64,000 nt of DNA from a bacterium. GTDB taxonomy: Bacteria > UBP18 > UBA7526. The notes beneath the pieces were generated by a model. It searched no databases. It was not told where the DNA came from and was given only the letters and a program-made list of their open reading frames with translations. Both the position numbers and the translations under genes were made by a program. This document shows, one piece after another, positions 345-47,105 of this stretch (positions are counted from its first letter, which is position 1; the number at the start of each line of letters is the position of its first letter). The DNA lies in contig JAUWYL010000001.1 of assembly GCA_030615855.1 (NCBI GenBank), positions 53,850 to 117,849 on the forward strand, written 5' to 3'.

Positions 345-2702
345 ATGAAGGGAAGGATTCTATTCCGAATAGTGAAGGGAGGGCTCCTTTCTATTATCCT
401 CTATACTCCTCTCATCCATGCCACAAAGGGAATCGGCACCTTAACCACCACCTATATCCTCATTCTATTCCTGAGTATGCTCTGGCTCTTGAGGATGAAT
501 GGCCAGAGAAGTTTTAGATTCATAAATAGTCCCCTAAATCTTCCCTTGGCACTTTTTCTCCTTTTTGCTCTTCTCTCCACCCTTTTCTCTATCAATAAGG
601 GAGCAAGCCTCAGTGAACTCTATAAGGTCATTCTCTTCATTTTACTTTATTTCCTTTTAATCAATAATCTTAAAGAGAAATATCAATTCAGGTCTCTTTT
701 TCTTGCTATCCTGAGTATAGGAGGCATTGTTGCTGCTTATGGGCTCTATCAGTATTTTTCCCATTGGCCGAATTTAACTGAAATTTCCTCTACCTTCCCT
801 CCCAATCCTAACTCCTTGGCCGGCTATCTCCTCTTAATCATTCCCCTGGCCTTTGTCTATGCCCTATTCGCTTCCTCCAAGTGGCTCTCCGGGATGGGCT
901 TTGTTATCACCTTTCTTACTTATTCCTGTCTCTTTGCCACCCATTCTCGAGGAGGACGATTGGCCCTCTTCGGCTCCCTGATCCTCTTTCTCACCCTCAT
1001 CTTCAAGTATCTGAGGAGAAAAGAGCTTTTAAGGGCGAGATGGAGATTCTTAACCTTGGTTCTATTGCTCATCCTTCTCTCGGGAACCCTCTCTTCCCTC
1101 CGTCTTATTCCCAAGCCTCCTTCAGCTCAGCAGATTCCTCAGGTAGAGGAGGCTGGCTCGTCCCCGAGAATCGAGGCCCAGGGCCCAAGATATCCCCTTC
1201 GGGAATACTTCCATAGGGGTTTCACCCCTCTGGCGGGGATTTTTCCTGCAACAGTTCGGAAAAATTCCCTGTCACCCCTTGAGGGCAAGCAGATTCTTTC
1301 CCCCAACCCCCCTAATCCTCAGCATCGGAATTATTCAAATTCCGATGCTTCAAGCGATATCCTATTGGGAGAACCACTCTCCTTCCGCTCCTTCTCTTTC
1401 CAGAGAACCTCGACCAATAAGTTCATCTTCGATAGGCTTAAAATCTGGGGAAGAACCTTGGAGATCATAAGGGACTATCCCCTTTTGGGTAGCGGGATGG
1501 GGACTTACGGGATAATATTCAAGAGGCATAAGATCCCTACCCCCTTGACTTCCGGAACCATTGCCCGCTATGGTCAATCGGCAAGATTCGCTCATAACGA
1601 ATATCTTCAGATAGCAGCAGAGACTGGCCTCCCCACCCTAATAATCTTCTTATGGATAATAACTCTCATCCTCCGCACCGGCCTAAGGACCTTAAAAGAG
1701 TCTCAAGTAGCACAGGAGGTTTACGGTAAACGGTTAACGGTTAACGGTAAACCATTTATAACCATCGGCCTCCTCTCTGGCCTAACTGGGGTTCTCCTTC
1801 ACAGTTTCATCGACTTCGTCCTCCGTCCCCCAGCAACAGATATCTTATTCATCTACTTCATTGCTTTCATCATGCTCCAAGCGAAGGCGGGCGACGGACA
1901 GACGGACAGACGGACAGACGGACAGACCCATTACCCAGACTCCCTCTTCCACCACCTCTACCACAGTCCTCTCATTCGTGGCAGCCTCATCATCTGTGTT
2001 GCCTTAATCCTCGCTGGCCAGGCAACTCTTCCCTTGATAGCCTATAGACACTATAGAAAAGGGATCGACCATCAAAAGAATAAGGCCTTCGATCAAGCAA
2101 TATCCTCTTATCTCACCGCTCAGAGATTAGAGCCCACCAACGACCGCTATCATAAGAACCTAGGAGACCTCTATCGCCACCTGGCTCTTCTCTTTAAAGA
2201 AGAGAGGAGTTTCTGGCTGGAGAAGGCCACTGAGGAATGTGAGAAGATGGTCAGGTTGAGCCCTCGGGATAATCATTACAGGAGGGATTTAGGGGTCATC
2301 TACTGGCTCGCCTCCCAGGGAAGGGACAGGCTCCTGATGAATAAGGCCATCACCCAGTTTAAGGAATCTCTGAGGATCGATCCCACCTTCCCATTTTCTT
2401 CTTTCGCTTTAGGGGTCATCTATGCTAAGATAGGTTGGGTAGATAAGGCGATTGAGAGGTTTGAAAGAGCAGTCTACTACGAGCCAAATTATGCCGAGGC
2501 CCACTATAACCTGGCTACCCTCTATGTTTCCCAGGGCTTATTCAAAAAAGCGATTGCTGAATATCAAGAGATTGTTGAGATAGAGAATAAGAATCTCTTT
2601 CCTAAAGTATCCTGTGGTTATGAGAAGGCTCTGCTCAGCTTCGATTACTCTCTGGCCCATCACGGATTGAGAAGCTCTCTTAAAAAAGTGGCCAAATTTT
2701 GA
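345..2702 (+). CDS. O-antigen ligase (Wzy_C) family membrane protein with C-terminal TPR repeats
   Basis: Multiple TM helices, NPNSLAGYL, THSRGG, RLKIW..T.EII.DYPLLGSGMG, AHNEYLQIAAETG; TPRs at the C-terminus; carries repeat-derived inserts. Confidence 0.85.
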   Translation: MKGRILFRIVKGGLLSIILYTPLIHATKGIGTLTTTYILILFLSMLWLLRMNGQRSFRFINSPLNLPLALFLLFALLSTLFSINKGASLSELYKVILFILLYFLLINNLKEKYQFRSLFLAILSIGGIVAAYGLYQYFSHWPNLTEISSTFPPNPNSLAGYLLLIIPLAFVYALFASSKWLSGMGFVITFLTYSCLFATHSRGGRLALFGSLILFLTLIFKYLRRKELLRARWRFLTLVLLLILLSGTLSSLRLIPKPPSAQQIPQVEEAGSSPRIEAQGPRYPLREYFHRGFTPLAGIFPATVRKNSLSPLEGKQILSPNPPNPQHRNYSNSDASSDILLGEPLSFRSFSFQRTSTNKFIFDRLKIWGRTLEIIRDYPLLGSGMGTYGIIFKRHKIPTPLTSGTIARYGQSARFAHNEYLQIAAETGLPTLIIFLWIITLILRTGLRTLKESQVAQEVYGKRLTVNGKPFITIGLLSGLTGVLLHSFIDFVLRPPATDILFIYFIAFIMLQAKAGDGQTDRRTDGQTHYPDSLFHHLYHSPLIRGSLIICVALILAGQATLPLIAYRHYRKGIDHQKNKAFDQAISSYLTAQRLEPTNDRYHKNLGDLYRHLALLFKEERSFWLEKATEECEKMVRLSPRDNHYRRDLGVIYWLASQGRDRLLMNKAITQFKESLRIDPTFPFSSFALGVIYAKIGWVDKAIERFERAVYYEPNYAEAHYNLATLYVSQGLFKKAIAEYQEIVEIENKNLFPKVSCGYEKALLSFDYSLAHHGLRSSLKKVAKF

Positions 2703-2975
2703 CCCCGCCCCCATTTGTATTAGAGAAAACTTCTTTTAATTCGGCGCTTGAGATTGGCAAGCGAGGTTCCATGATGTTTCAATTTTTGCTCACGTTCTCT
2801 AGCATCTTTTGGGATACGATAAGCTTCATAATATATCAAAATCCAATTTTTGTCTTTTGCCCAATGTTCTTGTATCCTCCGTCTCAAATCCGTGGTGGAA
2901 CCAATATAAATTTTATGTGAAATTCTATTCTGAATAATATAGACGTATGACATAAGAACAAAATGGGGGCGGGGG
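2703..2975. mobile_element. Miniature element with CCCCGCCCCCATTT inverted ends and TTGA(C) direct repeats, carrying a GIY-YIG gene
   Basis: Left TTGA|CCCCGCCCCCATTTGT, right ACAAAATGGGGGCGGGGG|TTGAC; empty relatives at 20796, 36259, 36303, 40065, 50769. Confidence 0.65.
2720..2953 (-). CDS. Small stand-alone GIY-YIG nuclease (77 aa)
   Basis: MSYVYII...IYIGSTTDLRRRIQEH...YYEAY...ARERE..LK motifs; ATG at 2953. Confidence 0.85.
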   Translation of the reverse strand: MSYVYIIQNRISHKIYIGSTTDLRRRIQEHWAKDKNWILIYYEAYRIPKDAREREQKLKHHGTSLANLKRRIKRSFL

Positions 2976-3004
2976 TTGACAAGCATCTTTTAATTTGATA
3001 TACT
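2976..3004 (+). promoter_or_regulatory. sigma70-type promoter for the arsR-LCP operon
   Basis: TTGACA-17 nt-TATACT. Confidence 0.7.
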
Positions 3005-3063
3005 ATTTATGAATTCTCAATAATTTGAAGATACAAAAAGTCCTTTTAGAGTAGGAGGAGATA

Positions 3064-3351: not shown

Positions 3352-3359
3352 TAATTAAG

Positions 3360-4448: not shown

Positions 4449-4452
4449 ATCT

Positions 4453-4895: not shown

Positions 4896-4907
4896 TGAGG
4901 AGAATAG

Positions 4908-5648
4908 ATGGAGAAGACGAGAATCGTCCAATTGAGGAAGATCATTAAAGAGAAAAAGATTCATACCTTATTCCAGCCCATTGTTTCTTTAAAAGATCAG
5001 AAGCTCTTGGGGTATGAAGCCCTGAGTCGGGGACCAGAGGGCATGGCCTTGGAGAAACCGGCTCTCTTGTTTGAAACAGCAAATGCCAGTAGTATGACTT
5101 TAAAATTAGAGAATCTCTGTCACAGGCAGGCCATCAAGAGTGCCCAAAGACTTCCTAAAGGACTGAAACTCTTTCTCAATATTGAAACTCCGGTATTGGA
5201 TAGCCGCCTATACCAGAGGTTGGACTATCTTAGAGAATCAGCCTTGAGGCCAGAAGATATTGTTCTTGAGATCACAGAGAGAAGTGCAATAAAAGATATC
5301 AAAGATTTTAAGAAAAACATGGCCCTCTTTCGCAGGAAGGGTTTTCATTTTGCTCTGGATGATACCGGAACAGGCTATAATAACATAAAGGTCTTTTGGG
5401 AATTGAAGCCAGAATACCTCAAATTACCTGCTTTCCTGATGCGAAATATAGAGCGGGATCCCCTGAAAGAGAAGTTTATTAGGGTCTTGGTAGACTGTGC
5501 AAAGGGGGCAAAGGCAAAGACAATCGCTGAGGCAGTAGAGAGAAGAATAGAGCTTAAGGTTCTATGTAGGCTGGGAGTAGACTTTGGTCAGGGGTATCTC
5601 TTCGCCCGACCAGGGAAGCCCTTTCCCAAGCCCAGGAAGATTCGGTAA
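4908..5648 (+). CDS. Stand-alone EAL domain protein (putative c-di-GMP phosphodiesterase)
   Basis: FQPIV, YEALSR, LEITE, LDDTGTGY, IAEAVE, QGYLFARP. Confidence 0.85.
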   Translation: MEKTRIVQLRKIIKEKKIHTLFQPIVSLKDQKLLGYEALSRGPEGMALEKPALLFETANASSMTLKLENLCHRQAIKSAQRLPKGLKLFLNIETPVLDSRLYQRLDYLRESALRPEDIVLEITERSAIKDIKDFKKNMALFRRKGFHFALDDTGTGYNNIKVFWELKPEYLKLPAFLMRNIERDPLKEKFIRVLVDCAKGAKAKTIAEAVERRIELKVLCRLGVDFGQGYLFARPGKPFPKPRKIR

Positions 5649-5892
5649 ACGGTTACGGTTGCGCAACTCGTATCAAATGATATAGCACAATATCAAAAAT
5701 CAAAGTGCAAAAATCAAAATGACAATGCAAAATGTAAAATTTTAAGTTTTAATCTGTAATTTTGATATTTAATTTTCTTATAGGGTGTGTAATTTTAATT
5801 TTTGATGTTTACATTTTGATTTTTCTATATGGTTTCATTTTGATATTTGATATTTAATTTTTGATTTTCCTATAACGTATACCGAAAGACGA
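5643..5892. repeat. AT-rich CAAAAT/ATTTTG inverted microsatellite element; reverse-oriented copy at 38796-39008
   Basis: 5650-5690 matches the reverse complement of 38959-38999 at 37/41 nt. Confidence 0.75.
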
Positions 5893-7576: not shown

Positions 7577-7684
7577 GGTAGTTACTACATCCCGTCAAAG
7601 CCGGGATTGTTACTATCGGTTACTACACTTCGTTGTTACTAACGGTTGCTTTTATTTCCGGTAACTGTTAGTAACCGCTGATAG
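7577..7684. repeat. GTTACTA-based element with internal hairpins; reverse-oriented copy at 58632-58752
   Basis: GTTACTACATCCCG...CGGGA.TGTTACTA...CTTCG shared in inverted orientation. Confidence 0.7.
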
Positions 7685-10027: not shown

Positions 10028-11104
10028 GTGGGAGTGATTGAAAGGTACCGGGATTATCTGCCAATAACAGAGAAGACACCGGTCGTTACCTTAGACGAAG
10101 GGAATACCCCTTTAATTAAGGCTCAGAGTTTAAATAAATCCCTGGGATTAGAGATCTATCTCAAGTATGAGGGGGTAAACCCCACAGGTTCCTTTAAGGA
10201 TCGGGGAATGACGGTTGCTGTCTCTAAAGCAAAGGAGGAGGGAGCAAAGGCGGTGATGTGCGCCTCCACGGGTAATACCGCGGCCTCTGCTGCCTCCTAT
10301 GCTTCTCGAGCGAACTTGGACTGCATTGTCTTGATTCCCAAGGGAGCCATTGCCCTGGGCAAGCTTGCCCAGGCCCTGATGCATGGGGCAAGGGTGATTG
10401 CCATTGAAGGGAACTTCGATCAGGCCCTGAAACTTGCCCGGGAGATAACAGAGAAATACCCCATAAAACTGGTCAACTCCATAAACCCCTACCGCATTGA
10501 AGGACAGAAGACAGCGGCCTTCGAGATCTGTGATGAGTTGGGGAAAGCGCCAGACTATCAGGTAATGCCGGTAGGGAACGCGGGGAATATTACTGCCTAC
10601 TGGAAGGGGTATAAGGAATATAAAGAAAAGGGGAAGATTAAATCTCTACCGAAGATGCTTGGCTTCCAAGCGGCTGGCGCCGCTCCCATTGTTGAGGGAA
10701 AGATGGTTGAGAAACCGGAGACCATTGCCACGGCAATAAGGATCGGTAACCCTGCTTCTTGGAAGAAAGCGGAGGAAGCCCGGGATGAATCCGGAGGGCT
10801 AATAGATAAAGTAACGGATGAAGAGATCCTTGATGCCTACAGGCTAATCGCTTCTCAGGAGGGGATATTCGTGGAGCCGGCCTCTGCGGCCTCGGTCGCT
10901 GGCCTGCTCAAACTTCATAGACAAGGATACTTCAAAGAAGAACTTCACCGATCACCGATCACCGATCACCGATCACAGCCATTAGTGGTCTGCATCTTGA
11001 CTGGTCATGGACTGAAGGATCCAGATAGGGCCATTGCCCAAGCTGTAAAACCAAAGGTCCTCCCCCCAACATTGGAAGCAGTAGTGAAGGAATTAGGCTA
11101 TTAG
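10028..11104 (+). CDS. thrC: Threonine synthase
   Basis: [31 protein letters not shown]; heptamer insert at 10945-10978. Confidence 0.95.
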
Positions 11105-11116
11105 CAGAACATAGGA

Positions 11117-11251
11117 GGTTTACGGTTCACGGTGTACGGTTTACGGTAAAAAAACGGTAAACGGCAAACAGTCCCGACGGATGTCGGGACGGGCAAATTG
11201 AATAGTAGCTATTCACCAGCGGGGTAAGTAAAACGCACCGCTCAACCGTAA
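11117..11251 (+). repeat. Composite repeat (GGTTTAC arms plus 56-bp conserved structured core), copy 1 of 3
   Basis: Core GGGCAAATTGAATAG...CACCGCTCAAC at 11191-11246, also at 43492-43547 and 63935-63990. Confidence 0.85.
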
Positions 11252-11267
11252 GCGACATGGAGAAGAC

Positions 11268-12197
11268 ATGGTAAGAGTTAGGGTGCCGGCGACTACAGCA
11301 AATTTGGGACCAGGCTACGATGTTCTGGGCTTGGCACTTAAATTATATAACTTCATAGAGATGGAGAAGTCAGACAAACTCTCCATCGAGATTGAAGGGG
11401 CAGGAACGGACTCCCTCCCTAAGGATGAGTCTAATATCGCCTACCAAGCAGCCCAAGAAACCTTTAAAACCGTAAACGGCGGGCACCCCGACAGACGTCG
11501 GGGTCGGTTAACCGTAAACCTAAAACTCATCAATAACATTCCCTTAGCGAGGGGATTGGGAAGTTCTGCTGCGGCACGCATCGGAGCCTTGGTGGCCGCC
11601 AATAGATTGATAGGAGATAAATTATCTCAAGATGAGATCCTCAAAATAGCGGCAAGATTGGAGGGTCATCCGGATAACGTAGTCCCTGCTTTAGTGGGGG
11701 GATTGACAGTTGCTGCCTTAACAGGCGATAAGGTTAGATTTTTAAGATTTTCCAAGGTGCGAAATGATTTGAAGATAGTGGTTGCCATTCCTGATTTCAA
11801 AGTCTCAACTATTGAGGCCCGTAAGGTCTTGCCAAAAAATTTTAGTCTGATAGATGTAGTTACCACTTCGAGTAGTATTCTTTTCACGACTGCAATTCTG
11901 ACTGGGGAAGGTAGTCCAGAATTATTAGATGAGAGCATGCAAGACCGAATTCACCAGCCTTATCGCAAAAAACTTATTCCGGCAATGGACGAGGTTTTTA
12001 ATGCGGCTCGTAAGGCTGGCGCTCAAGGTGTGGCTTTAAGTGGTTCTGGCTCTACCATCGCGGCCTTCTCTATTGGAAATAGTGAAGAAAAAAATAAAGA
12101 AATAGGCCAGGCCATGGTCAGTACTTTTCAGAAGGCAGGTCACGAAAGTCATTATAAGATCTTAGATATCGATCGCGAAGGTGCAGTATGCCTTTAA
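11268..12197 (+). CDS. thrB: Homoserine kinase
   Basis: [35 protein letters not shown]; insert at 11467-11520. Confidence 0.95.
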
Positions 12198-13432
12198 TTG
12201 TTCAAAAATATGGAGGGTCATCAGTCGCTGATGTCGGGAAGATTAAGAATGTAGCCAAGAGGGTTAAGAGGACCGCGAAGAAGGGAAATAAGGTGGTGGT
12301 GGTTGTCTCCGCCCCAGGCGATACCACAGACCGCCTCCTCTCCTCCGCCTATGAGATAACTGCCCATCCCTCGGAAAGAGAAGTGGATATGCTCCTGGCT
12401 ACGGGAGAGCAGATTTCTATCTCTCTCTTAACTATGGCCCTGCATTCTTTAGGCTGTCCGGCCATCTCCTTCACTGGCCCCCAAGTCAGGATCCTCACCG
12501 ATATGGCACATACCAAAGCCAGGATCCTCTCCATAGATACTGAAAGGATAAAGGATGAATTAAAGAAGGGGAAGGTGGTAGTGGTTGCTGGCTTTCAGGG
12601 GATAAGTCGGGAGGAGGATATCACTACCCTGGGTCGGGGAGGAAGCGATACCACGGCCGTTGCCCTGGCTGCCAGCCTGAAAGCCGCCTCCTGCGAGATA
12701 TATACCGATGTGGAGGGAATCTATACTGCAGATCCCAGAATGGTTCCTTCTGCTGAGAGACTGAAGAAGATTTCCTATGATGAGATGCTGGAACTTTCGT
12801 CTCTGGGAGCAAAGGTAATGCAGCTACGGAGCGTGGAATTGGCCAAGAGATATAATGTGAAGTTACATGTTCGCCCAAGTTTTACTAATAAGGAGGGAAC
12901 CATGATTACCAAGAAGAGGCTCCGCCCCAGAGGGGCTCTGCCCCGGAGGGGCCTGGAGGCCCCGGAGGTCTGCGGGGTCACCTATGATAAGAATCAGGCG
13001 AAGATCACCATTCAGAGTGTTCCTGATAGGCCGGGGATTGCCTCTGTTATTTTTAGTAAGATAGCAAAGAAAAACATCAATGTCGATATGATCATCCAAT
13101 CTGCCAGTCTCAAGGGTTTAACAGATGTCTCCTTTACGGTAGCAGGAACTGATCTGAAAAAGGCCCTTCCCGCTATCAAGGAAATAGCAAGAAGAATAAA
13201 AGCCAGGGGAGTGGCCTCAAGCAAGGAAGTGGCCAAGGTCTCTATTGTGGGAGTGGGAATGAGGTCCCATCCCGGAGTGGCCGCCAGGATGTTCTCCTGC
13301 TTAGCAAAAAAGGGAATAAATATTGAGATGATTTCAACCAGTGAGATAAAGATCTCCTGTGTCATTGGGGAAAAAGAGGTCAAGAAAGCAGTGAGGTCAT
13401 TACATAAGGAATTCGGTTTAGGAAGGAGTTAA
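12188..13432 (+). CDS. lysC: Aspartate kinase
   Basis: [27 protein letters not shown], two ACT domains. Confidence 0.95.
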
Positions 13433-15004: not shown

Positions 15005-15250
15005 CAGATTTGTAGATTATCAGAACATCAGACTATCAGAATGAGAATTCAGAACATCAGAATACCGGGATGAGGGTGAGTCGTGGGTTGTGAGTCGGGT
15101 TGTGCGGATGGGTTGTGGGGTCTTTTTGCCTCACCCTCACTACTCACAACCTAACCCACTACTCACTACCCATCCCTACCCTTAATCAATCTGGCCTTCT
15201 GATATCTGACCTTCTCCATCTGATGTTCTGATAATCTGATATTCTTTTAT
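15005..15250. repeat. Nested inverted microsatellite arrays
   Basis: Outer ATCAGAAC.../...TTCTGAT arms enclosing inner GGGTTGTGAG.../...CTCACAACC arms. Confidence 0.75.
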
Positions 15251-16197: not shown

Positions 16198-19080
16198 ATG
16201 GCTATACCGACTAGATATCAACCAAAAAAAGTTGAAGAGAAGTGGTATAAGTACTGGATGGATAAGGGCTACTTCCACGCCGAAGTAGATAGAAAGAGAA
16301 AGCCCTTTACCATGGTCATCCCTCCTCCCAATATTACTGGGTCCTTACATATGGGCCATGCCCTGAACAATACCCTACAGGATATTTTGATTAGATATAA
16401 GAGGATGAGAGGCTACAATGCCTGCTGGATCCCAGGAACCGACCATGCGGGAATCGCTACCCAGAATGTTGTAGAGAAGGAGCTACTGAAAGAGGGGAAG
16501 AGTAGGTTTAATCTGGGAAGAGAGAAGTTTGTAAAAAAGGTCTGGGAGTGGAAAGAGAAGTATGGGAATAGAATTATCGAGCAATTGAAGAGGTTAGGAT
16601 GCTCCTGCGACTGGGAAAGATTGAGATTCACCTTGGATAAGGGATGCTCAGAAGCAGTGACCGAGACCTTTGTCAGACTATACGGGAAGGGCCTAATCTA
16701 TAGGGACGAATACATTATAAACTGGTGTCCCAGGTGTCAGACTGCTTTATCTGATATTGAGGTGGAGCACGAAGAAGAGAAGGGCCACCTCTACTACATT
16801 AAATACTTCTTCAAGCCCAACCCACCTGCCCACTTGCCCACCTGCCCACCTGCTTTCATTACCGTGGCTACTACCAGGCCAGAGACTATGCTCGGCGATA
16901 CTGCGGTGGCGGTCAATCCCAGGGATAAGAGGTTTAAGAAACTAGTAGGCAAGACCCTGATCCTCCCCATCCTTAATAGAGAAATACCCCTAATCAGTGA
17001 TGAGTATGTTGATCCAGAGTTTGGTACTGGAGCAGTAAAGATCACCCCAGCCCATGACCCCCATGACTTTGAGATAGGAAGAAAGCATAAACTTCCTGAA
17101 GTAAGAGTCATAGGTACCTCTGCAAAGATGACTGAAAAGGCCGGGAAGTACGAGGGATTGGATAGGTATGAATGTAGAAAGAGGCTTCTGGAAGATTTAA
17201 AGAAAAAGGGCTATTTAGAGAAGAAAGAGGATTATTCTGTTCCTGTGGGAAGGTGTTATAGATGTTCTACACCTATTGAGCCTTTGATCTCTCTGCAGTG
17301 GTTCTTGAGAGTAGAGGAATTAGCAAAACCGGCCATCGAGGTAGTAGAGAAAGGAAAGATAAATTATATCCCTGAGCGCTGGAAGAAGGTCTATCTGGAT
17401 TGGATGGCGGGTCTGAAAGACTGGTGCCTTTCACGGCAGATATGGTGGGGACACCGAATTCCCGTTTATTACTGCAAGAGATGTTTGAAAGAAACGGGAA
17501 TTCGGAATGCAAAATTGGGATCAAAAGGGATCATTGTGGCGAGGAAGAGGCCGAAGGAATGCCCCAATTGTGGGAATAAAAATTTGGTTCAGGACCCAGA
17601 TGTCTTAGATACCTGGTTCTCCAGTGCTCTCTGGCCCTTCTCTACCTTCGGCTGGCCGAAGAAGACAAAGGATTTAGCATACTTCTATCCCACAAGTCTT
17701 TTAATTACTGGCCATGAAATCATCCACCTCTGGGTGGCGAGGATGATAAAGATGGGACTGAAATTAATGGACGATATACCTTTTAGCGAAGTTTACATCC
17801 ATGGTATTGTTCGGGACAAGAAGGGGAAGAAGATGAGTAAATCCTTGGGGAATGTTATCGATCCCTTAGACATTATTGCTGAATATGGAACGGATGCCCT
17901 TCGCTTTACCTTAGCCTCTTCCTGTGCTCAGGGGCAGGACTTACAGCTATTCGATGAGAAGTTCACTTCAAGTAGAAACTTCGCCAATAAGATATGGAAT
18001 GCCTTAAGATTCGTCCTCATGAACCTCAAAGATTTTCAACCGATCACCGCGGGCACCCCGACAGATGTCGGGGCCGGATCACCGATCACCGGTTTATCCC
18101 TGGCTGACCGCTGGATTCTCAGTAGATACAATAGAGTTGTCAAAGAGGTAACAGATTCCATTGAAAATTACAGGATAAGTGAAGCAGCCCAATCCCTATA
18201 CCAGTTTATCTGGCATGAGTTCTGCGACTGGTATCTGGAAATGATAAAGCCCAGACTCTACCAACAAGAAGAAGCTATCGAGCCATCAAGCAATCGAGCT
18301 ATCGGGACGGACAGACGGACAGACGGGCAGACGGACAGACGGACAGACCTATCGTCTAAAGAAGCGGTGCAGTATGTGATGTGGTATGTTCTGGAGGGAA
18401 CATTGAAACTTCTCCATCCCTTCATGCCCTTTATCACAGAAGAGATCTGGCAGGCGCTAAAGCGCCATACGCAGATGACCGCAGATATAAACCTGTCTGC
18501 CGAGGAGGCAGGCGCAGATGACCGCAGATTAGAAAGCATTATGATTAGTTCCTGGCCAGAAGTTGATAAGAAGAGAATAGATACTAAAATAGAGAAGGAG
18601 ATGGCCCTTGTTATAGAGGTCACTACTTCGATCAGGAATATTAGATCAGAGATGGGAATCGCTCCCCAGGAAAAGATAGGGGCCATTCTCAAGATAAGGA
18701 GGAAAGACCAGCTGAAGACTTTAGAGAAGAACGCCACTTATATCAGAAACCTCGCTCGGGTATCTAGGATAGAGATGGGTCCGGATGTCAAAAAGCCCAT
18801 CCCCTCTGCCAGTGCGGTAATCGGTGAGATTGAAGCCTGGGTCCCCCTTAAAGAATTGATCGATCTGGTGAAAGAAAGAGCGCGCCTGAAAAGGCAGATG
18901 GACAAGGTGGCAGGAGAACTAAGAAGGGCAAAAGGGAAATTGGAGAGCGAAGATTTTTTAAGTAAAGCCCCGGCAAGAGTAATTGCTAAAGAAAGGAAGA
19001 AGGAGGAAGAACTTAAGGAAAGATCCGAAAAGTTAAAAAAGAGCTTTAAAAGCCTGCAATCGCAAAAGCGCAAAAAATAA
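16198..19080 (+). CDS. valS: Valine--tRNA ligase
   Basis: PPPNITGSLHMGH, GTDHAGIATQ, WCLSRQIWWGH, KMSKS; several repeat-derived in-frame inserts. Confidence 0.97.
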   Translation: MAIPTRYQPKKVEEKWYKYWMDKGYFHAEVDRKRKPFTMVIPPPNITGSLHMGHALNNTLQDILIRYKRMRGYNACWIPGTDHAGIATQNVVEKELLKEGKSRFNLGREKFVKKVWEWKEKYGNRIIEQLKRLGCSCDWERLRFTLDKGCSEAVTETFVRLYGKGLIYRDEYIINWCPRCQTALSDIEVEHEEEKGHLYYIKYFFKPNPPAHLPTCPPAFITVATTRPETMLGDTAVAVNPRDKRFKKLVGKTLILPILNREIPLISDEYVDPEFGTGAVKITPAHDPHDFEIGRKHKLPEVRVIGTSAKMTEKAGKYEGLDRYECRKRLLEDLKKKGYLEKKEDYSVPVGRCYRCSTPIEPLISLQWFLRVEELAKPAIEVVEKGKINYIPERWKKVYLDWMAGLKDWCLSRQIWWGHRIPVYYCKRCLKETGIRNAKLGSKGIIVARKRPKECPNCGNKNLVQDPDVLDTWFSSALWPFSTFGWPKKTKDLAYFYPTSLLITGHEIIHLWVARMIKMGLKLMDDIPFSEVYIHGIVRDKKGKKMSKSLGNVIDPLDIIAEYGTDALRFTLASSCAQGQDLQLFDEKFTSSRNFANKIWNALRFVLMNLKDFQPITAGTPTDVGAGSPITGLSLADRWILSRYNRVVKEVTDSIENYRISEAAQSLYQFIWHEFCDWYLEMIKPRLYQQEEAIEPSSNRAIGTDRRTDGQTDRRTDLSSKEAVQYVMWYVLEGTLKLLHPFMPFITEEIWQALKRHTQMTADINLSAEEAGADDRRLESIMISSWPEVDKKRIDTKIEKEMALVIEVTTSIRNIRSEMGIAPQEKIGAILKIRRKDQLKTLEKNATYIRNLARVSRIEMGPDVKKPIPSASAVIGEIEAWVPLKELIDLVKERARLKRQMDKVAGELRRAKGKLESEDFLSKAPARVIAKERKKEEELKERSEKLKKSFKSLQSQKRKK

Positions 19081-25468: not shown

Positions 25469-26380
25469 ATGAAAAAGAAAATTGGGGGATTAAATCTAAA
25501 GAAAGTTAGGCCTATTGTGAGGATGGCTCTGGAAGAGGATGTTGGGAAGGGAGATATTACTACTAATCTTATTATTCCCAAAGGAAGGAAGGCGAGAGGG
25601 GCCATCTGGGTCAAAGAAAAAGGGATCATTGCTGGATTGCCAGTGATGGGATTAACCTTTAAGACAGTGAATAAAAAAGTAGAATTTAAAGCAAAAGTGA
25701 AAGAGGGAGAAAGGGTAAAGAAAGGGCAGGCGATCGCAGAAGTTATTGGTAATGCAAGGAGTATATTGACTGCAGAAAGGACGGCATTAAATTTTTTGCA
25801 GAAGTTATCCGGAATTGCTACCCTGACCAATCAATTTGTGGAAAGAGTTAAACCTTATAAGGTCAAAATTTTCGATACTAGGAAGACTACCCCGGGCTTA
25901 AGATACCTGGAGAAATATGCTGTGAGGTGCGGAGGAGGGTGTAATCATCGCATGGGACTCTGGGAGATGGTTCTCATAAAGGATAACCATCTTAAAATGC
26001 AAAATGCAAAATGCAAAATGCAAAATTTAAAGGATATAGTAGAAAAGATAAGGGAGAAGATACCAAAAGGGATGAAGATTGAGGTAGAGGCGAAGAATTT
26101 AAGAGAAGTAAGAGAAGCCTTAAAAGCAAGGGTGGATATTATAATGCTTGATAATATGAGCATAGAAAGGATGAAGAAAGCCATAAGGCTAATCCAATCC
26201 AGGATCCAGGATCCAGGATCTAGGATCCCTCTTATTGAAGCATCAGGAGGAATAACTTTAGAGAATGTGAAAAAGATTGCTAAGACTGGAGTAGATAGAG
26301 TCTCTATCGGTGTCCTGACCCATTCTGCCAAAGCCTTGGATATCAGTTTAAACATTGCAACCACAGAGGACACAGAATAA
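25469..26380 (+). CDS. nadC: Nicotinate-nucleotide diphosphorylase (carboxylating)
   Basis: ERTALN, DTRKTTPG, LIKDNH, IMLDNM, EASGGI; two heptamer inserts. Confidence 0.95.
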   Translation: MKKKIGGLNLKKVRPIVRMALEEDVGKGDITTNLIIPKGRKARGAIWVKEKGIIAGLPVMGLTFKTVNKKVEFKAKVKEGERVKKGQAIAEVIGNARSILTAERTALNFLQKLSGIATLTNQFVERVKPYKVKIFDTRKTTPGLRYLEKYAVRCGGGCNHRMGLWEMVLIKDNHLKMQNAKCKMQNLKDIVEKIREKIPKGMKIEVEAKNLREVREALKARVDIIMLDNMSIERMKKAIRLIQSRIQDPGSRIPLIEASGGITLENVKKIAKTGVDRVSIGVLTHSAKALDISLNIATTEDTE

Positions 26381-28961: not shown

Positions 28962-29786
28962 ATGAAATATCTCTTAGCTATTGATGTGGGAAATACCACA
29001 ACAGCCATTGGTATCTTCAGGAAACGCGAATCAAAGCGAATGGAAAAAGGACGCGAATCAACGCGAATAAAGAAAGAAAAATTAGTCATTAACTGGCATG
29101 TTGCTACCATCCGCCAGAGGAGCGCAGATGAGCACTATATCCTCCTCGAGGAGTTATTTCGCTTTAACAAGATAAGGAAAGGGGATATAAGGGCCATGGT
29201 CATCTCTTGTGTCGTTCCTCCCGTATTGAGCGCTCTGGAGGAATTAGCCAGAAAGTATTTCAAGATTAAACCCCTGATCGTTAGTCCGGGCATTAAGACC
29301 GGGATAGCCATAAAATATGACGATCCCCGAGAGGTAGGGGCGGATAGGATAGTCAATGCCGTAGCTGCCTATGAGAAGCATGGTGGACCAGTAATTGTTG
29401 TTGACTTCGGTACCGCGACCACCTTTGATGTCATCTCCAAGAAGGGAGAATACCTGGGAGGGATCATTGCCCCGGGAATCCAGATTTCCTCCGATGCCCT
29501 ATTTGAGAAGGCGGCCAGACTCCCCCGAGTAGAGATTATAAAGCCCAAGAGAGTAATCGGGAAGGATACGGTAAGTTCCATACAGTCTGGTCTAATCTAT
29601 GGCTTCGTGGGCCAGGTGGATGAGATTATAAGAAGAATTAGCGAGGAATTGAGAAGCAAGCCAAAGGTTATCGCTACTGGTGGATTGGCAAAGCTAATTG
29701 CCACAGAATCAAAGACCATCGAGAAGGTAGATCCTCTGTTGACCTTGGAGGGCCTTCGCTTAATATATGAAAGGAATGTGAAATGA
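28962..29786 (+). CDS. coaX: Type III pantothenate kinase
   Basis: LLAIDVGNT, GADR, VDFGTATT, ATGG; 10-mer insert at 29024-29069. Confidence 0.95.
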   Translation: MKYLLAIDVGNTTTAIGIFRKRESKRMEKGRESTRIKKEKLVINWHVATIRQRSADEHYILLEELFRFNKIRKGDIRAMVISCVVPPVLSALEELARKYFKIKPLIVSPGIKTGIAIKYDDPREVGADRIVNAVAAYEKHGGPVIVVDFGTATTFDVISKKGEYLGGIIAPGIQISSDALFEKAARLPRVEIIKPKRVIGKDTVSSIQSGLIYGFVGQVDEIIRRISEELRSKPKVIATGGLAKLIATESKTIEKVDPLLTLEGLRLIYERNVK

Positions 29787-37355: not shown

Positions 37356-38165
37356 ATGCTGAAAAAGAGGGTTGCTTTTCTGGGAACAGGGAATATGGCT
37401 ACTGCTTTAATGAGAGGAATTATTGAGGCAGGACTTACCAAGCCAGAGGATATCATTATAAGTGATATTGATAAAGAGAAGTTAGGAGTTAGGAGTTCGG
37501 AGTTCGGAGTCATTGGGGCTAAAGATAATAGGGAAGCAGTTAAGGAAGCAGATGTTATTATTTTAGCGGTGAAGCCCAAAGATATAGAAGGGCTCTTAAA
37601 CGAGATTAAAGAATCTTTAGATTCAAAAAAACTGGTTATCTCTATCGCTGCTGGGATTACTACCTCCTATATCGAGAAGATGTTAAAAAAGGAGATCCCG
37701 GTTGTCAAGGTTATGCCCAATACCCCGGTGGCAGTGAAGGAAGGAACGAGCGCCTTCTCGATAGGGAAATATATTTCTCAAGAACAAGAGGAGATAGTAG
37801 AGAGCATCTTTGGGGCAGTGGGGAAGACGGTTAAGGTAGAGGAGAATCTCATGGATGCAGTTACTGCTCTCTCGGGAAGCGGTCCGGCCTATATCTTCTA
37901 TATTATCGCCTCTTTAATTGAAGCAGCGGTCTCCTTGGGACTGGATAAGAAGACCGCCACCACCCTCGCCATTCAGACGGTCCTCGGCTCCGCTAAATTA
38001 CTTCAAGAGACAGGTGAAGAGCCTGCTACCTTAAGGGAAAGGGTGACCTCTAAGGGAGGAACGACAGAGGCCGCCCTATTAGTCCTGGACGAGGGAAGAT
38101 TAAAAGAGACTCTGGATAAGGCATTGAAAGCAGCCGCCAAAAGATCAGAAGAACTTAAAAGGTAA
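37356..38165 (+). CDS. proC: Pyrroline-5-carboxylate reductase
   Basis: G.GNM, LAVKP, MPNTP, SGSGPAY, VTSKGGTT. Confidence 0.95.
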   Translation: MLKKRVAFLGTGNMATALMRGIIEAGLTKPEDIIISDIDKEKLGVRSSEFGVIGAKDNREAVKEADVIILAVKPKDIEGLLNEIKESLDSKKLVISIAAGITTSYIEKMLKKEIPVVKVMPNTPVAVKEGTSAFSIGKYISQEQEEIVESIFGAVGKTVKVEENLMDAVTALSGSGPAYIFYIIASLIEAAVSLGLDKKTATTLAIQTVLGSAKLLQETGEEPATLRERVTSKGGTTEAALLVLDEGRLKETLDKALKAAAKRSEELKR

Positions 38166-40223: not shown

Positions 40224-42977
40224 ATGGATTACGATAAAACTCTTTGTCTACCAAAGACGAAATTTCCTATGAAGGCCGAGCTTCCCAAGAGGGAGCCGGA
40301 GATACTCTCTCTCTGGGATAGAATGGATATTTATCAGAGAATAAGGGAGAAGAAGGGGGCCAAGAAGTACATTCTTCATGATGGTCCTCCCTATGCCAAT
40401 GGGGATGTTCACATTGGAACCGCCCTCAATAAGATATTAAAGGACATCATCGTCAAGTTCAAAACCATGTCTGGTTTTGATGTCCCCTTTGTTCCTGGCT
40501 GGGACTGCCATGGTCTCCCCATAGAGCACCAGGTGATGAAGTTCCTGGGGCCCAAGGGACTAAAACTCTCTCAGGTTGAGATCAGAAAGAAGTGCCAGGA
40601 TTACGCTAAGAAGTATATCGATATTCAGAAAAAACAGTTCAAGAGATTAGGAGTCTTCGGTGATTGGAAGAATCCTTATTTAACATTGGACCCTGAATAT
40701 GAGGCAAAGATCATAGAAATTTTTGCTAAACTTATTAAAGAAGGTTATGTTTACAAGAGGAAGAAACCCATCCACTGGTGCCCCACCTGCAAGACCGCCT
40801 TGGCAGAGGCGGAGCTGGAATATAAGGATCGTACCTCTCCTTCAATTTATGTCAAATTCAAACTCCTCCACCCTGACCGTTCACCGATCACTGTTCACCG
40901 TTCACCGATTTATATTATCATCTGGACCACCACTCCCTGGACGCTCCTGGGCAATGTAGCCATTGCCTTCCATCCCAACTTCGATTACCAACTCCTCAAG
41001 ATAAATGATGAGATATTTATTATGTTAAAAGATTTAGTTGCCCCCATTATGGAGAGACTGGGAATAGAGAACTTTGAAGTGTTGGATACCATTAAGGGTA
41101 AGAGATTTGAGGGATTGGAGTGCCAGCATCCCTTTTTGGATAAGAGATCAAGGCTCATCTTAGCAGATTATGTTACTAAAGAAGACGGGACGGGCTGTGT
41201 TCATACCGCACCGGGCCATGGAGAGGAGGATTACCAGAGTGGAGTGAAGTATGATCTACCCATCCTTTCCCCAGTGAGTGAGAGGGGGGAGTTTACTGAA
41301 GAGGCAGGAGAGTTTAAAGGTCAGGATGTCTTTAAGGCGAATGAAGGAATCATTAAGAAACTAAAAGAGACCGGAAATCTAATCTATGAGGAAACTCTTA
41401 TCCACTCCTATCCCCATTGCTGGAGATGCAAGAACCCGGTCATCTTTCGGGCAACGGAGCAGTGGTTCATCTCTGTAGACCATAAGAATTTAAGGAGAAG
41501 AGCACTTACTGAAATAGACAAAGTGGAATGGATCCCGGATTGGGGCAGATCGCGCATCAGGGGGATGGTGGAGGTCAGGCCCGACTGGTGTATCTCGAGG
41601 CAGAGGGCCTGGGGGGTTCCTCTTCCCATATTCTACTGTAAAGAGTGTAATCACTACTTAGCAAGTGAAGAGAGCCTGGAAGCAGTTAAGGAATTAGTAA
41701 GAAGGGAGGGCTCTGATAGCTGGTTTAAGAAGGGAGTAGATGAAATTCTTCCTCAAGGCACTATCTGTCTCAATTGTGGAGAAAAGAATTTTAGGAAAGA
41801 AACCGATATCTTAGATGTCTGGTTTGAATCCGGGGTGAGCCACCAGGCGGTATTGACTACCAGAGAAGAACTATCTTATCCTTCTGACCTCTACTTAGAG
41901 GGAAGCGACCAGCACCGGGGATGGTTCCAGAGCTCTCTATTGACCGCCTTGGGATGTGAAGAAAAGACTCCCTATAAATCGGTTCTTACCCATGGCTTCA
42001 TGGTGGATGGCAAGAGGAGGAAGATGTCCAAGTCCTTAGGAAACCTCATCTCTTCTGAAGAGATGGTTAAAAAAAACGGGGCAGATGTTACCAGATTATG
42101 GGTGGCCTCTGAGAACTATCAGGAGGATGTTGCCTACTCTGATGAGATAATAGAGAGGATGCAGGAGGCCTATCGCAGAATCCGGAATACCTTCCGCTAT
42201 CTTCTGGGGAACCTCTCCGACTTCGATCCCAAAAAAGATAGCATAGAATATGATGGGATGTTGGAGATAGATAGATGGGCCCTCTCCCAGTTGCAGAGTC
42301 TCCTGGAGAAGGTGACCAAGGCCTACCACAGTTTCTCCTTCTATCAGATCTACCATCTGGTCCACAACTTCTGCACCATTCAGCTATCTTCTTTCTACTT
42401 CGATATCCTGAAAGATAGATTATATACCCAGGGAAAAGATTCAAAGGAGAGGCGTTCTGCCCAGACCGCCCTCCATGAGATACTCCTAGTTTCAGTGAAG
42501 ATTATGGCTCCCATCCTCTCCTATACCATAGAGGAGGTCTGGGAATATCTTCCCGGCGAGAAAGAGGAAAGCGCCCATCTCTCTGACTGGCCAAAAGTAA
42601 ATAAAAGATTCTTGAATAAAAAATTGGAAGAGAGATGGGAGAGATTAATCTCCATCAGGGAAAGGGTCTTAGACTCCTTAGAAAAGGCCAGGAAGGAGAA
42701 GAGAATAGGTAATTCCTTAGAAGCAGAGGTGGAGATCCGTTGTGAGAAGGAATACCAATTCCTGAAAAAATATGAGAAAGATCTTCCTGCTTTATTCATC
42801 GTCTCTAAGGTAAGGTTAGTAAAGAAAGGGAATGGAGAGATACTGGTCAAGGTGAAAAAGGCGCCAGGAAAGAAATGTAGCCGCTGTTGGAACTATTCCA
42901 TAGAAGTGGGCAAAAGTAAAGAGTACCCTACCCTCTGCCCAAGGTGCATTAGAGTAATCAAGAAATATTACAGTTAG
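40224..42977 (+). CDS. ileS: Isoleucine--tRNA ligase
   Basis: LHDGPPYANG..HIG, GWDCHGLP, WCISRQR, KMSKS, C-terminal Zn finger. Confidence 0.97.
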   Translation: MDYDKTLCLPKTKFPMKAELPKREPEILSLWDRMDIYQRIREKKGAKKYILHDGPPYANGDVHIGTALNKILKDIIVKFKTMSGFDVPFVPGWDCHGLPIEHQVMKFLGPKGLKLSQVEIRKKCQDYAKKYIDIQKKQFKRLGVFGDWKNPYLTLDPEYEAKIIEIFAKLIKEGYVYKRKKPIHWCPTCKTALAEAELEYKDRTSPSIYVKFKLLHPDRSPITVHRSPIYIIIWTTTPWTLLGNVAIAFHPNFDYQLLKINDEIFIMLKDLVAPIMERLGIENFEVLDTIKGKRFEGLECQHPFLDKRSRLILADYVTKEDGTGCVHTAPGHGEEDYQSGVKYDLPILSPVSERGEFTEEAGEFKGQDVFKANEGIIKKLKETGNLIYEETLIHSYPHCWRCKNPVIFRATEQWFISVDHKNLRRRALTEIDKVEWIPDWGRSRIRGMVEVRPDWCISRQRAWGVPLPIFYCKECNHYLASEESLEAVKELVRREGSDSWFKKGVDEILPQGTICLNCGEKNFRKETDILDVWFESGVSHQAVLTTREELSYPSDLYLEGSDQHRGWFQSSLLTALGCEEKTPYKSVLTHGFMVDGKRRKMSKSLGNLISSEEMVKKNGADVTRLWVASENYQEDVAYSDEIIERMQEAYRRIRNTFRYLLGNLSDFDPKKDSIEYDGMLEIDRWALSQLQSLLEKVTKAYHSFSFYQIYHLVHNFCTIQLSSFYFDILKDRLYTQGKDSKERRSAQTALHEILLVSVKIMAPILSYTIEEVWEYLPGEKEESAHLSDWPKVNKRFLNKKLEERWERLISIRERVLDSLEKARKEKRIGNSLEAEVEIRCEKEYQFLKKYEKDLPALFIVSKVRLVKKGNGEILVKVKKAPGKKCSRCWNYSIEVGKSKEYPTLCPRCIRVIKKYYS

Positions 42978-43385: not shown

Positions 43386-43391
43386 CGTGAG

Positions 43392-43556: not shown

Positions 43557-43576
43557 TTGATAGAAGGAGGAGACAA

Positions 43577-44400: not shown

Positions 44401-44401
44401 G

Positions 44402-45206
44402 ATGCATCCCATCCTCTTCGAAATAGGGCCATTGACCATCTATTCCTATGGGGTGATGCTTGCCTTGGCCTTTGTTGTGGGTATCTGGTTTGCCACCCGC
44501 CAGGCACGAAGAGAAGAAGTTTCCGCCAATACCATATTAGATCTCTCTCTCGTTGCCCTGTTAACTGGGATAATCGGCGCTAGAATACTCTTTGTTCTTC
44601 TCAATTTAAATTACTATCTTCTTCATCCCTTTGAGATCATCATGTTCTGGCAGGGAGGATTGATCTACTCTGGGGGACTCATTCTAGGGACATTATGCGC
44701 CATACTATTCCTGAAAGTCCGCAGGCTAAATATCTGGAAGGTAGTAGATATCTACGCCCCTTCTTTGGCTATTGGCCAGGCCATTGGCCGTATCGGTTGT
44801 TTTTTAAACGGCTGTTGCTTTGGTAAGCCGGTTTCCTGGGGAATCAAATTCCCTCCGGGAAGTATGGCCTCTTATGAACAGTTCTCTCAAAGTCTAATCA
44901 AGAGTGTCAATGAATACTCCCTTCCCGTTCATCCCACTCAATTATATTCTTCTCTCAATGCCCTGATAATCTTTCTTATCCTCATTCTGGTGAGAAGGAG
45001 GAAGAGATTTAATGGGGAACTCTTCTGGCTCTATCTTCTCTTATATGCCATCACCAGATTTGGCATTGAGTTCTTAAGGGGGTGATAATCGGGGTCCGGT
45101 ATTTTTTAATCTCTTTAGCATCTCTCAATTAATTGGAGTAAGAATATTTATTTTAGCTTTCATCATGTTTTTTGTGCTTAAAAGAAAGGAGGTGAAAATA
45201 GAATGA
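44402..45206 (+). CDS. lgt: Prolipoprotein diacylglyceryl transferase (apparent +1 frameshift in a G5 run at 45078-45082)
   Basis: GARI, GGL, GRIGCFLNGCCFG, HPTQLY, EFLRG; the +1 frame continues DNRG...SISQ plus a TM helix to a TGA overlapping the next ATG. Confidence 0.85.
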
Positions 45207-46168: not shown

Positions 46169-46169
46169 T

Positions 46170-47105
46170 ATGTTCCGGTTCGTCATTGACCATCTCCAGG
46201 CCAACCAGAGAATAGACCTCTACCTTGTGCAAAAAAGATTAGACCTTTCCCGTTCCCAGATCCAAAGATTAATCTCCTCTGGCAAGATAAGAGTAAACGA
46301 TTTAGTTGTAAAACCGAGCTATAAAGTAAGAGTTAAGGATAGAATAGAGGTCACTATTCCCAAACCAAGGCCTCTTAAAATAGAGCCGGAGAAGATACCC
46401 CTTAGTATCCTCTATGAGGATAGGGATTTGATTGTGGTCAATAAGCCAAGGGGGATGGTGGTCCATCCTGGGGCAGGGGTAAGTTCTGGCACCTTGGTAA
46501 ATGCTTTACTCTATCACTGTAAGGACCTATCCGGCATCGGTGGGGTCTTAAGGCCAGGGATTGTCCATAGGTTAGATAAGGATACCAGCGGAGTCTTGGT
46601 AGTTGCCAAGAACGACTTCGCCCATCTTACCCTATCCAAACAGTTTAAAGAGAGAAGAGTCAATAAAAGATATATTGTCTTAGTAAAGGGTGGAGTCTTA
46701 AAAGAGCAAGGCAAAATTGAGGCTCCTATTGGTCGCCATCCAGTGAAGAGAAAGAAGATGGCTGCTGGTGTGAGAAGAGCAAGGAGAGCCATTACCAGTT
46801 ATAAGGTCTTAGAGAGGTTTAAGGACTTTACTCTCATAGAAGCCATCCCAGAAACGGGAAGGACCCATCAGATAAGGGTTCATCTGACCCATATCGGCCA
46901 TTCCATAGTGGGGGATGCGAAGTATGGGACGAAAAAACTCAAAACTCAAAACTTAAAACTTAAAATAGCAATAGATAATTTGAAGGGGCAGGCATTGCAT
47001 GCTCAGACCTTGGGCTTCACCCACCCTAGAACCAAGGAATATATGGAATTCAACGCACCCCTGCCAGAGGATATGGAAAAGGTAATTGAACTCTTAAGGA
47101 AATGA
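46170..47105 (+). CDS. rluD: RluA/RluD family pseudouridine synthase
   Basis: S4 domain, HRLDKDTSG, TGRTHQIRVH, QALHA. Confidence 0.93.
   Translation: MFRFVIDHLQANQRIDLYLVQKRLDLSRSQIQRLISSGKIRVNDLVVKPSYKVRVKDRIEVTIPKPRPLKIEPEKIPLSILYEDRDLIVVNKPRGMVVHPGAGVSSGTLVNALLYHCKDLSGIGGVLRPGIVHRLDKDTSGVLVVAKNDFAHLTLSKQFKERRVNKRYIVLVKGGVLKEQGKIEAPIGRHPVKRKKMAAGVRRARRAITSYKVLERFKDFTLIEAIPETGRTHQIRVHLTHIGHSIVGDAKYGTKKLKTQNLKLKIAIDNLKGQALHAQTLGFTHPRTKEYMEFNAPLPEDMEKVIELLRK

Follow-up and report, generated by a model that had tools for sequence, protein, structure and literature searches.

Among the long simple-sequence repeats of prokaryotes, which have units of 5-11 nt, heptanucleotides are the commonest, and slippage has been proposed for them (Mrazek et al. 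2007, via excerpts of PMC4679880 and PMC4692102). Excerpts of the former paper also carry a polymerase-footprint version of the slippage idea for heptanucleotide repeats and name units that are multiples of a triplet as those that occur in genes (PMC4679880). Here we describe arrays of 7-, 8- and 10-nt units that are read in frame inside core enzymes of a bacterium of the lineage UBP18; UBA7526 (assembly GCA_030615855.1; 1.375 Mb in 45 contigs, 93.6% complete, 44.5% G+C; hereafter G000). The window, meaning the whole stretch of 64,000 nt that was analysed, is G000:C30:53850-117849. Its arrays resemble the long simple-sequence repeats in being head-to-tail units of 7-10 nt far above chance, with heptamers most frequent and a mostly intergenic location, and whole-unit length change is reflected here in an intergenic ladder of 7- and 8-nt steps. 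They differ from what those excerpts describe in that non-triplet units lie in frame at about 78 places in long open reading frames (ORFs), aminoacyl-tRNA synthetase genes included; further features here are the number of different units, about 150 per genome, a mode near 4.4 units, the formation of hairpins by inverted arrays, and identical copies scattered over the genome. The general kind, heptanucleotide simple-sequence repeats, is known, and its in-frame non-triplet form in core enzymes is unusual; our literature searches, with supplementary files outside their reach, found no earlier account of core enzymes whose reading frame runs through non-triplet arrays.

Tandem heptamers, the STRRs (short repetitive sequences in tandem copies), were reportedly described in cyanobacteria by Mazel in 1990, and Vioque is said to have found them in 1997 within the gene for RNase P RNA. 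In Nostoc punctiforme, Elhai and colleagues reportedly described in 2008 small dispersed repeats, hairpins of 21-27 nt nested in tandem heptamers and sometimes located in ORFs. STRRs and these nested repeats would be the nearest analogues of the present system. Beside the small dispersed repeats may be set a hairpin family of the present genome (CCCGAC-RGAT-GTCGGG), of whose 16 copies 10 lie beside 7-mer arrays and 5 in ORFs. Excerpts of PMC4692102 state that the GGGGA(C/T)T and GGGAATC repeats found in Nostoc and Xanthomonas favour four units and are avoided in coding DNA. As far as these excerpts go, the likeness to our arrays extends to tandem heptamers, to a number of about four units, to variation in length and sequence among close relatives and to occasional presence in genes. 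The arrays here differ in belonging to another, deep-branching lineage with a 1.4-Mb genome, and in a frame filter that is seen as a missing rung in their lengths. STRR sequences are defined by a few heptamers in heterocyst-formers, a definition outside which this lineage falls, and the specific STRR heptamers were not searched for. The units here are not G-rich, so that a G-quadruplex explanation of the four units does not apply.

Repeat DNA that is tolerated and read in frame within core genes has a precedent in the palindromic elements of Rickettsia, which are about 100-150 nt long, non-tandem and translated in frame inside such genes; the present arrays are unlike them in size and in being tandem. 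The TAACTGA repeats of marine Beggiatoaceae form arrays of 2-6 copies, mostly intergenic with a few in ORFs at protein ends, and consist of a single unit, with stops in the three frames of one orientation, for which a regulatory role upstream of starts was proposed (excerpts of PMC4679880). Within the reach of these excerpts, the likeness is that heptamer arrays lie mainly between genes and in some ORFs, and the difference is the many units found here. REPINs are intergenic hairpin doublets (excerpt of PMC3116915), and they depend on RAYT transposases. The hairpin doublets are alike, but the RAYT gene that REPINs require (Y1_Tnp, PF01797) was found in none of the six genomes of this family by profile search, the control being positive in 6 of 14 known genomes. 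Borg tandem repeats that lie in ORFs have unit lengths divisible by three, unlike the 7-, 8- or 10-nt units here, in which the frame is kept by unit number. An excerpt of PMC9879509 describes the Borg repeats as fast-evolving and as creating new low-complexity protein segments. The arrays also differ from contingency loci, phase-variable repeats typical of surface or virulence genes, whose unit number varies by strain and moves the gene into or out of frame: here the frame is open across every array site within relatives' contigs, the hosts are housekeeping genes, and the out-of-frame rungs are missing inside genes. Rewriting by diversity-generating retroelements or retron-type systems calls for a reverse transcriptase, and profile PF00078 matched none of the six genomes.

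These six genomes are G000 and five relatives (G001-G005), the only family kin of G000 in a collection of 199,900 species; the remaining relatives that were returned share its domain only. The sequencing runs that contain DNA of the window are labelled marine sediment, sediment or subsurface metagenomes. An array is a non-overlapping call of Tandem Repeats Finder (TRF) with a score of at least 40, the control is a third-order Markov shuffle of the genome, and gene names were checked with NCBIfam.

We regard it as probable that the coding arrays are the in-gene survivors of a family-wide tandem-repeat process, that is, slippage filtered by the reading frame rather than new machinery. A sequence-only reading of the window had listed microsatellites inside core enzymes, and TRF together with codon-aligned translation places every one of them at its coordinates within an open frame. 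The host genes thrC, valS, nadC, coaX, proC, ileS and rluD were also correctly named; the gene called a ligase encodes an IctB/O-antigen-ligase-like membrane protein with TPR repeats and is not a DNA ligase. The features are the following; those at 12918-12952, about 18034-18100 and 18306-18348 had no coordinates in that reading.

1718..1753, plus strand: 7-nt array of GGTTAAC/GGTAAAC, 5.0 units, in the O-antigen-ligase-like/TPR ORF 345-2702 (TRF 1718-1752); identical in G002, other 8-mers there in G005.
1893..1927, plus strand: GACGGACA, 4.4 units, in the same O-antigen-ligase-like ORF 345-2702, peptide DGQTDRRTDGQT (TRF); a degenerate array 24 nt longer in G002, AAACTGGC in G005.
10945..10978, plus strand: TCACCGA, 4.6 units, in thrC (TRF 10945-10976); an AGTCCAA remnant with a hairpin in G001, a short ATCCAGG-type array in G003 and G004.
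12918..12952, plus strand: period-16 insert, GC-rich and self-complementary, that keeps the frame of ORF 12188-13432 (TRF); 33 nt in G000, absent from G002, with a few copies of its family in G000.
15019..15245, no strand: intergenic example of a cassette, an ATCAGAA-type array and its inverted copy around a second, nested inverted pair (TRF); unalignable with G002 or G001 despite conserved flanking genes; its 20-mer ATCAGAATGAGAATTCAGAA occurs at 13 loci.
16821..16853, plus strand: CCCACCTG, 4.1 units, in a valS loop near residue 208 (TRF); CTCACCTG of the same length in G002, unrelated units in the four other relatives.
18034..18100 (about), plus strand: TCACCGA array split by the hairpin CCCGAC-AGAT-GTCGGG (18057-18072), in valS, encoding GSPITG; uninterrupted in G001, other 7-mers of equal total length in G002, G003 and G005.
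18272..18348, plus strand: period-16 duplication followed by GACGGACA, 5.4 units (18306-18348), in valS, peptide TDRRTDGQTDRRTD (TRF); AAACCGGC in G001, a GC-rich palindrome in G002, two other 7-mers in G005.
25994..26028, plus strand: AAAATGC, 4.7 units, nadC site 1, peptide KMQNAKCKMQNL (TRF 25994-26026).
26197..26228, plus strand: ATCCAGG, 4.6 units, nadC site 2, peptide QSRIQDPGSRIP (TRF).
29024..29076, plus strand: composite ACGCGAAT-type block, period 27, two units, in coaX (type III pantothenate kinase; TRF); the 51-nt block is present in G000 and G003 and absent from G001, G002 and G004.
37480..37510, plus strand: AGTTAGG/AGTTCGG, 4.4 units, in proC (TRF).
40876..40909, plus strand: TCACCG(A/T), 4.6 units, in ileS (TRF 40876-40907); same unit family and length in G002, G003 and G004, AAGTCC(A/T) instead in G001.
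46934..46965, plus strand: AAAACT(C/T) (AAAACTC, 4.6 units), in rluD (RluD-type pseudouridine synthase; TRF); CTCCGAA in G002 and G003, with a nested 36-nt palindrome in G002.

Peptides common to unrelated proteins, another claim of that reading, are real: ThrC and IleS share a peptide (DRSPITVHRSPI in IleS), with GSPITG in ValS, and DGQTDRRTDGQT of the ligase-like protein has its counterpart in TDRRTDGQTDRRTD of ValS.

The in-gene arrays belong to a repeat system that runs through the genome and the family. G000 holds 729 arrays against 45 in the shuffle, an excess that excludes chance, and the excess is found at period 7 (152 vs 1), period 8 (104 vs 0), period 10 (75 vs 4), period 14 (95 vs 3) and period 16 (49 vs 4); triplet-type periods are scarce, with one array of period 3 and three of period 6. 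Arrays of periods 7, 8 and 10 have a density of 24 per 100 kb in G000 and of 19-98 in the loci of its five relatives, compared with 1.5 per 100 kb in an outgroup of 104 unrelated bacteria, whose 742 kb of loci hold 11 arrays. When split by crude ORF calls (1263 ORFs covering 88.8% of G000), 357 arrays are intergenic, 125 run across an ORF end, 49 lie near an end, 28 are in short ORFs and 170 lie well inside long ORFs; among these 170, 78 have a period of 7, 8 or 10 (57, 16 and 5 arrays, respectively). About 49 distinct units occur in genes and 106 between genes, with no motif in common. The intergenic arrays are usually paired with inverted copies and so build nested hairpins, whose arm nearer the upstream gene has a purine fraction of 0.586, the other arm 0.473. 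That the coding arrays are related to these intergenic arms, as the earlier reading had it, is supported by the 62 of 78 that have a unit within one mismatch of an intergenic one, and by dispersed imperfect blocks and lineage-specific dominant units.

Array lengths carry the argument. The same reading had taken the arrays to be inserted as blocks and not grown by slippage, on the ground that single-unit slips would frameshift essential genes. A histogram of near-exact runs fragments imperfect arrays and was indecisive, and lengths were therefore taken from a low-threshold TRF run (minimum score 22). Intergenic period-7 arrays then stand on rungs one unit apart (7k+3), at 17 nt, 23-25 nt (42 arrays), 30-32 nt (53) and 37-39 nt (12), and period-8 arrays at about 20, 27-28, 35-36 and 43-44 nt; no such rungs appear in the shuffle. 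In genes, arrays are nearly missing from the rung of two added units but fill that of three (21 or 24 nt). Coding against intergenic counts are 7 vs 42 at 23-25 nt and 36 vs 53 at 30-32 nt for period 7 (Fisher p=0.0019), and 2 vs 27 at 27-28 nt and 9 vs 14 at 35-36 nt for period 8 (p=0.0066), with p=1.6e-5 for both pooled, values that overstate the difference because dispersed array copies are not independent. A one-unit ladder of which genes keep only the rung of three whole units fits unit-wise slippage combined with a reading-frame filter, and the terminal partial unit of 3-4 nt is the residue expected of slippage between short microhomologies. This pattern contradicts the earlier argument that slippage is ruled out. 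Note that the ladder is a distribution of lengths and not a set of observed mutation events.

Among arrays with TRF scores of at least 40, the commonest length is 32 nt for those in genes (19 of 57) and 31 nt for the intergenic ones (16 of 66), and since 32 is not a multiple of three the coding mode argues against blocks of arbitrary size. With modes of 31-32 nt in 7-mers but 35-36 nt in 8-mers, a constant nucleotide length acting as a ruler was rejected; what is counted is units. Block insertion is supported by the coaX block, found in two of five genomes and absent from three, and opposed by the proC and rluD arrays, which replace sequence. The age of the sites, common to the whole family with units that change in place, likewise speaks against a rejection of slippage. 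The contrast of block insertion with slippage is only partly supported.

The reading frame acts on the units as well as on their number. In the sense direction, the consensus unit is free of stops in all three phases in 67 of the 78 coding arrays, as against 39 of 78 in antisense, 70 and 77 of 171 intergenic arrays on the two strands, and 53-64% of random units. The 11 coding arrays whose consensus contains a stop escape it through variant units: the array at 1718-1753 has GGTAAAC, which avoids an in-frame TAA, in each of the two units whose first base is codon position 1, and proC has AGTTCGG instead of AGTTAGG for the unit whose phase would bring TAG into frame. Avoidance of stops, with mutated units in precisely the dangerous phase, indicates that the arrays are translated. 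The alternative that they are cut from the mRNA or skipped by the ribosome, in favour of which nothing was found, is very improbable, since constraints on frame, stops and rungs would be needless if the segment were removed: the frame is continuous across all 78 arrays, stop depletion is specific to the sense strand, variant units sit exactly at the stop phases, and out-of-frame rungs are missing in genes.

In the array-encoded peptides H, Q, T, P, S and R are over-represented, while E, A and L are under-represented. Compared with known structures, the arrays add 6 residues (site 1) and 8 residues (site 2) to NadC (1x1o) and 12 to a loop of ThrC (threonine synthase 2zsj), leave ProC unchanged in length (0 residues against 3tri) and shorten a loop of RluD by 2 (E. 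coli RluD, 1v9f); in CoaX, 17 residues of the block are absent from three relatives. The AlphaFold model of NadC (mean predicted local distance difference test, pLDDT, 88.2) places both arrays at helix ends and loops with a pLDDT of 71-72, most of the remainder exceeding 90. The arrays, which lie in surface loops of these enzymes, encode polar, low-complexity loop segments, probably without a function of their own.

Could the arrays be products of assembly? Contigs of the relatives and Logan contigs do often end at arrays, and Logan contigs break or branch at arrays common to many loci (e.g., 25994). However, six genomes, each assembled on its own, and some 20 metagenomic NadC sequences have arrays at the same positions, with the frame kept throughout, and contigs of one run (X1) bridge three arrays: 18306-18348 without differences, 26197-26228 with one difference, and 16821-16853 with 23 differences along the contig, none of those listed lying inside the array. 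X1 may be the source sample, so that its bridging is not fully independent. We consider an artefact extremely improbable. Two Logan joints, 15053/15197 and 12906/12949, were set aside as possibly coming from other loci or relatives. Some genes of relatives are also split between contigs (thrC of G003 over C65/C19, and valS of G004 over C133/C116, one of these contigs ending at the residue-208 array site), and together with the Logan breaks this suggests that the repeats probably add to assembly fragmentation.

Comparison with the orthologues, which the sequence-only reading had proposed as a check, shows array sites occupied in most or all relatives wherever their contigs cover them, coaX excepted, while the units themselves mostly differ, changed in place. 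At nadC site 1 the unit is AAAATGC, AAAGTCC or TTCAGGC, at site 2 five genomes have five different units, and among 20 NadC proteins of the family each site has at least 8 alleles in reassorted combinations. The valS site near residues 612-632 holds four different 7-mers of identical total length, and the proC site three different units with length unchanged. Change can be concerted: C is replaced by T in four of four units between CCCACCTG of G000 and CTCACCTG of G002 in valS, at constant length. The ileS gene of G002 is two codons shorter immediately upstream of its array.

The rate of change of coding arrays is somewhat above that of a neutral proxy, and indels are many. For G000 and G002, identity is 71.5% in arrays, where 108 of 462 nt are gapped, compared with 82.5% for 4-fold sites and 90.9% for the flanks; between G000 and G001 the values are 54.0%, 71.3% and 86.5%. 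The differences amount to about 1.6 times those of 4-fold sites, plus indels, and a rate orders of magnitude above neutral was rejected for coding arrays. Intergenic cassettes turn over far faster than coding arrays: alignment of G000 with G002 fails in most spacers, even where the adjoining genes are 90-96% identical.

These rates bear on the possibility that arrays are kept for use, either as motifs, in RNA or DNA, that serve a regulator or a nucleoid protein, or as a source of variation in the surface loops of enzymes. Sites kept in all family members, a preferred number of units (four being likewise reported for GGGAATC repeats in excerpts of PMC4692102) and the pairing of intergenic arrays into hairpins beside gene ends would suit such a role. 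The absence of a shared motif among the coding and intergenic units speaks against it, as do unit sequences that are unconserved at every examined site except through recombination or close kinship, and array substitution that is at least at the 4-fold-site rate in four of five relative comparisons (G003 being the exception). The encoded peptides are polar and of low complexity with lower model confidence, and the hosts are housekeeping enzymes. We therefore consider usefulness improbable as an explanation.

Array alleles are also exchanged among lineages. The proC array is identical in G000 and G001, where it lies in a 91-nt identical run within a high-identity 5' tract of about 280 nt; the gene is 86% identical overall, with a sharp switch of identity. 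The coaX block, common to G000 and G003 only, disagrees with overall relationships. Array alleles therefore travel with short tracts of homologous recombination. Nucleotide identity between G000 and G002 ranges by gene from 84% (valS) to 96% (the ligase-like gene), with thrC and nadC near 95%, and valS of G000 is nearer to G001 than to G002; this unevenness and the switch in proC show the genomes to be recombination mosaics.

Copies are dispersed within genomes too. A single imperfect order of units, such as GAAAGTGA-GAAAGTGG-GAAAGTGA-GCAGGTGA, recurs at many loci, and 713 non-periodic 20-mers each have at least four loci, with 16 and 13 for the most frequent. Lineages each have their own dominant units: AAAGTCC has 5 loci within 53 kb of G001, whereas the whole of G000 has 4 and the 64-kb window none. 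The hairpin family CCCGAC-RGAT-GTCGGG has 16 loci in G000, 5 of them in ORFs, and 10 of the 16 lie within 25 nt of an array, compared with a genome baseline of 6.4%. Between G000 and G002, two species of a single genus, 40 genes (15,007 codon columns) contain 15 internal indels of at least 9 nt, of which at least 9 are arrays or small GC-rich palindromes (30, 33, 36 or 54 nt).

Such observations raise the possibility of a dedicated copy-and-paste enzyme that writes tandem or palindromic cassettes of about 31-36 nt, preferentially into existing arrays, the coding copies being those in frame by chance. Identical imperfect blocks at many loci, lineage-specific dominant units, clean presence or absence of the inserts of 30, 33, 36 and 54 nt, the clustering of the hairpin family near arrays, a length mode common to coding and intergenic arrays, and composite sites of relatives with two adjoining arrays would all follow. 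The one-unit intergenic ladder would not, nor would coding runs that are mostly 32 nt long or the proC and rluD sites with a net length change of zero or less. Moreover, neither conserved terminal motifs nor target duplications were seen around the copies, and the profiles RVT_1 (PF00078), Y1_Tnp, Cas1 and Ku each matched none of the six genomes. We find this alternative unlikely.

We hold just as doubtful a related idea, that arrays are counted cassettes of about 4.4 units, whatever the period, which are rewritten in place from other arrays by a templated process; where MutS and MutL are lacking, ectopic conversion or else template switching could be that process. If true, it would represent an array-directed mutational mechanism, distinct from plain slippage, in which the dominant unit of a lineage overwrites homologous loops while length and frame are kept.

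The inventory of repair genes is relevant to all of these processes. By profile search, MutS (MutS_V) and MutL (DNA_mis_repair) were found in none of the six family genomes, whereas RecA is present in all six. NucS_C-like matches occur in five genomes, four of them over the cut-off, but extend over no more than 37-44 of the 124 positions of the profile, and the ORFs that hold them measure 128-154 aa; as short fragments they were not counted as NucS. A lineage without canonical mismatch repair should tolerate slipped or mismatched intermediates and recombination between diverged sequences. We infer from this that its lack could be a cause of the arrays.

The explanation that we favour, slippage filtered by the reading frame, would work as follows. 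Replication slippage between microhomologies of 3-4 nt located 7, 8 or 10 nt apart would lengthen and shorten arrays by whole units, and the arrays would settle near 4.4 units and be homogenised internally. They would sometimes be copied between loci, small GC-rich hairpins would nest inside them, and homologous recombination would spread them among lineages. In genes, three filters would apply: addition of three whole units (21 or 24 nt), no in-frame stop, and a tolerant loop or helix end. The ladder with its frame filter, the avoidance of stops, common sites with differing units, concerted change, dispersed identical blocks and recombination mosaics are observed here, whereas slippage as the elementary step is inferred.

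Several points weigh against this explanation. The dispersed imperfect blocks, and AAAGTCC at five unlinked loci of G001, need interlocus copying beyond slippage. Among intergenic period-7 arrays the ladder has its maximum near 4.4 units instead of declining steadily, which simple slippage does not predict. Stepwise slippage from one to four units in an essential gene needs frameshifted intermediates, so that the three-unit gain would have to be reached without a lethal step. At valS residues 612-632 and in proC, exact length is kept while the unit becomes unrelated. Some other mismatch repair may exist, given the NucS_C-like fragments. To these are added the non-independence behind the Fisher values, the crude ORF calls behind the coding and intergenic split, and a completeness of 53-85% in five of the six genomes, because of which statements of absence lean mainly on G000.

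Other repeats of the window accompany the arrays. The strongest tandem repeat is a 47-nt unit in 2.2 copies of 96% identity at 52462-52563 (TRF score 190). In the O-antigen-ligase-like ORF 345-2702, a structured element of about 170 nt (1184-1360) is read in frame in G000 and G002 and absent from the orthologue in G005; separate contigs that match it, at 74-93% identity, are numerous in the five relatives, none of which lacks them. At its gathering thresholds Rfam gave no family for this element and only one tRNA in the window. The intergenic segments 5647-5878, 7580-7677, 11106-11258 and 15062-15189 each match several to many contigs of relatives, and they are multi-copy cassettes conserved throughout the family, though their host spacers are non-orthologous. 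In ValS (16198-19080), the zinc-finger region (near residues 430-470) has a different low-complexity segment around its CxxC...CxxC insertion in each relative, and that of G002 has two additional stretches of 63 nt.

Arrays of this kind break assemblies and inflate the apparent divergence of proteins in such lineages. The preference for about four units in repeats that are not G-rich questions the G-quadruplex explanation given for other heptamers, and the failure to find MutS and MutL in any of the six genomes provides a testable tie between repair capacity and repeat load. The ladder with its missing rung allows mutation (between genes) and selection (within them) to be read for one process in one genome. 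Non-triplet repeats, thought to be excluded from essential genes or to act there as on/off switches, are in this family a routine source of loop sequence, and aminoacyl-tRNA synthetases and biosynthetic enzymes are among the proteins that gain loops from them.

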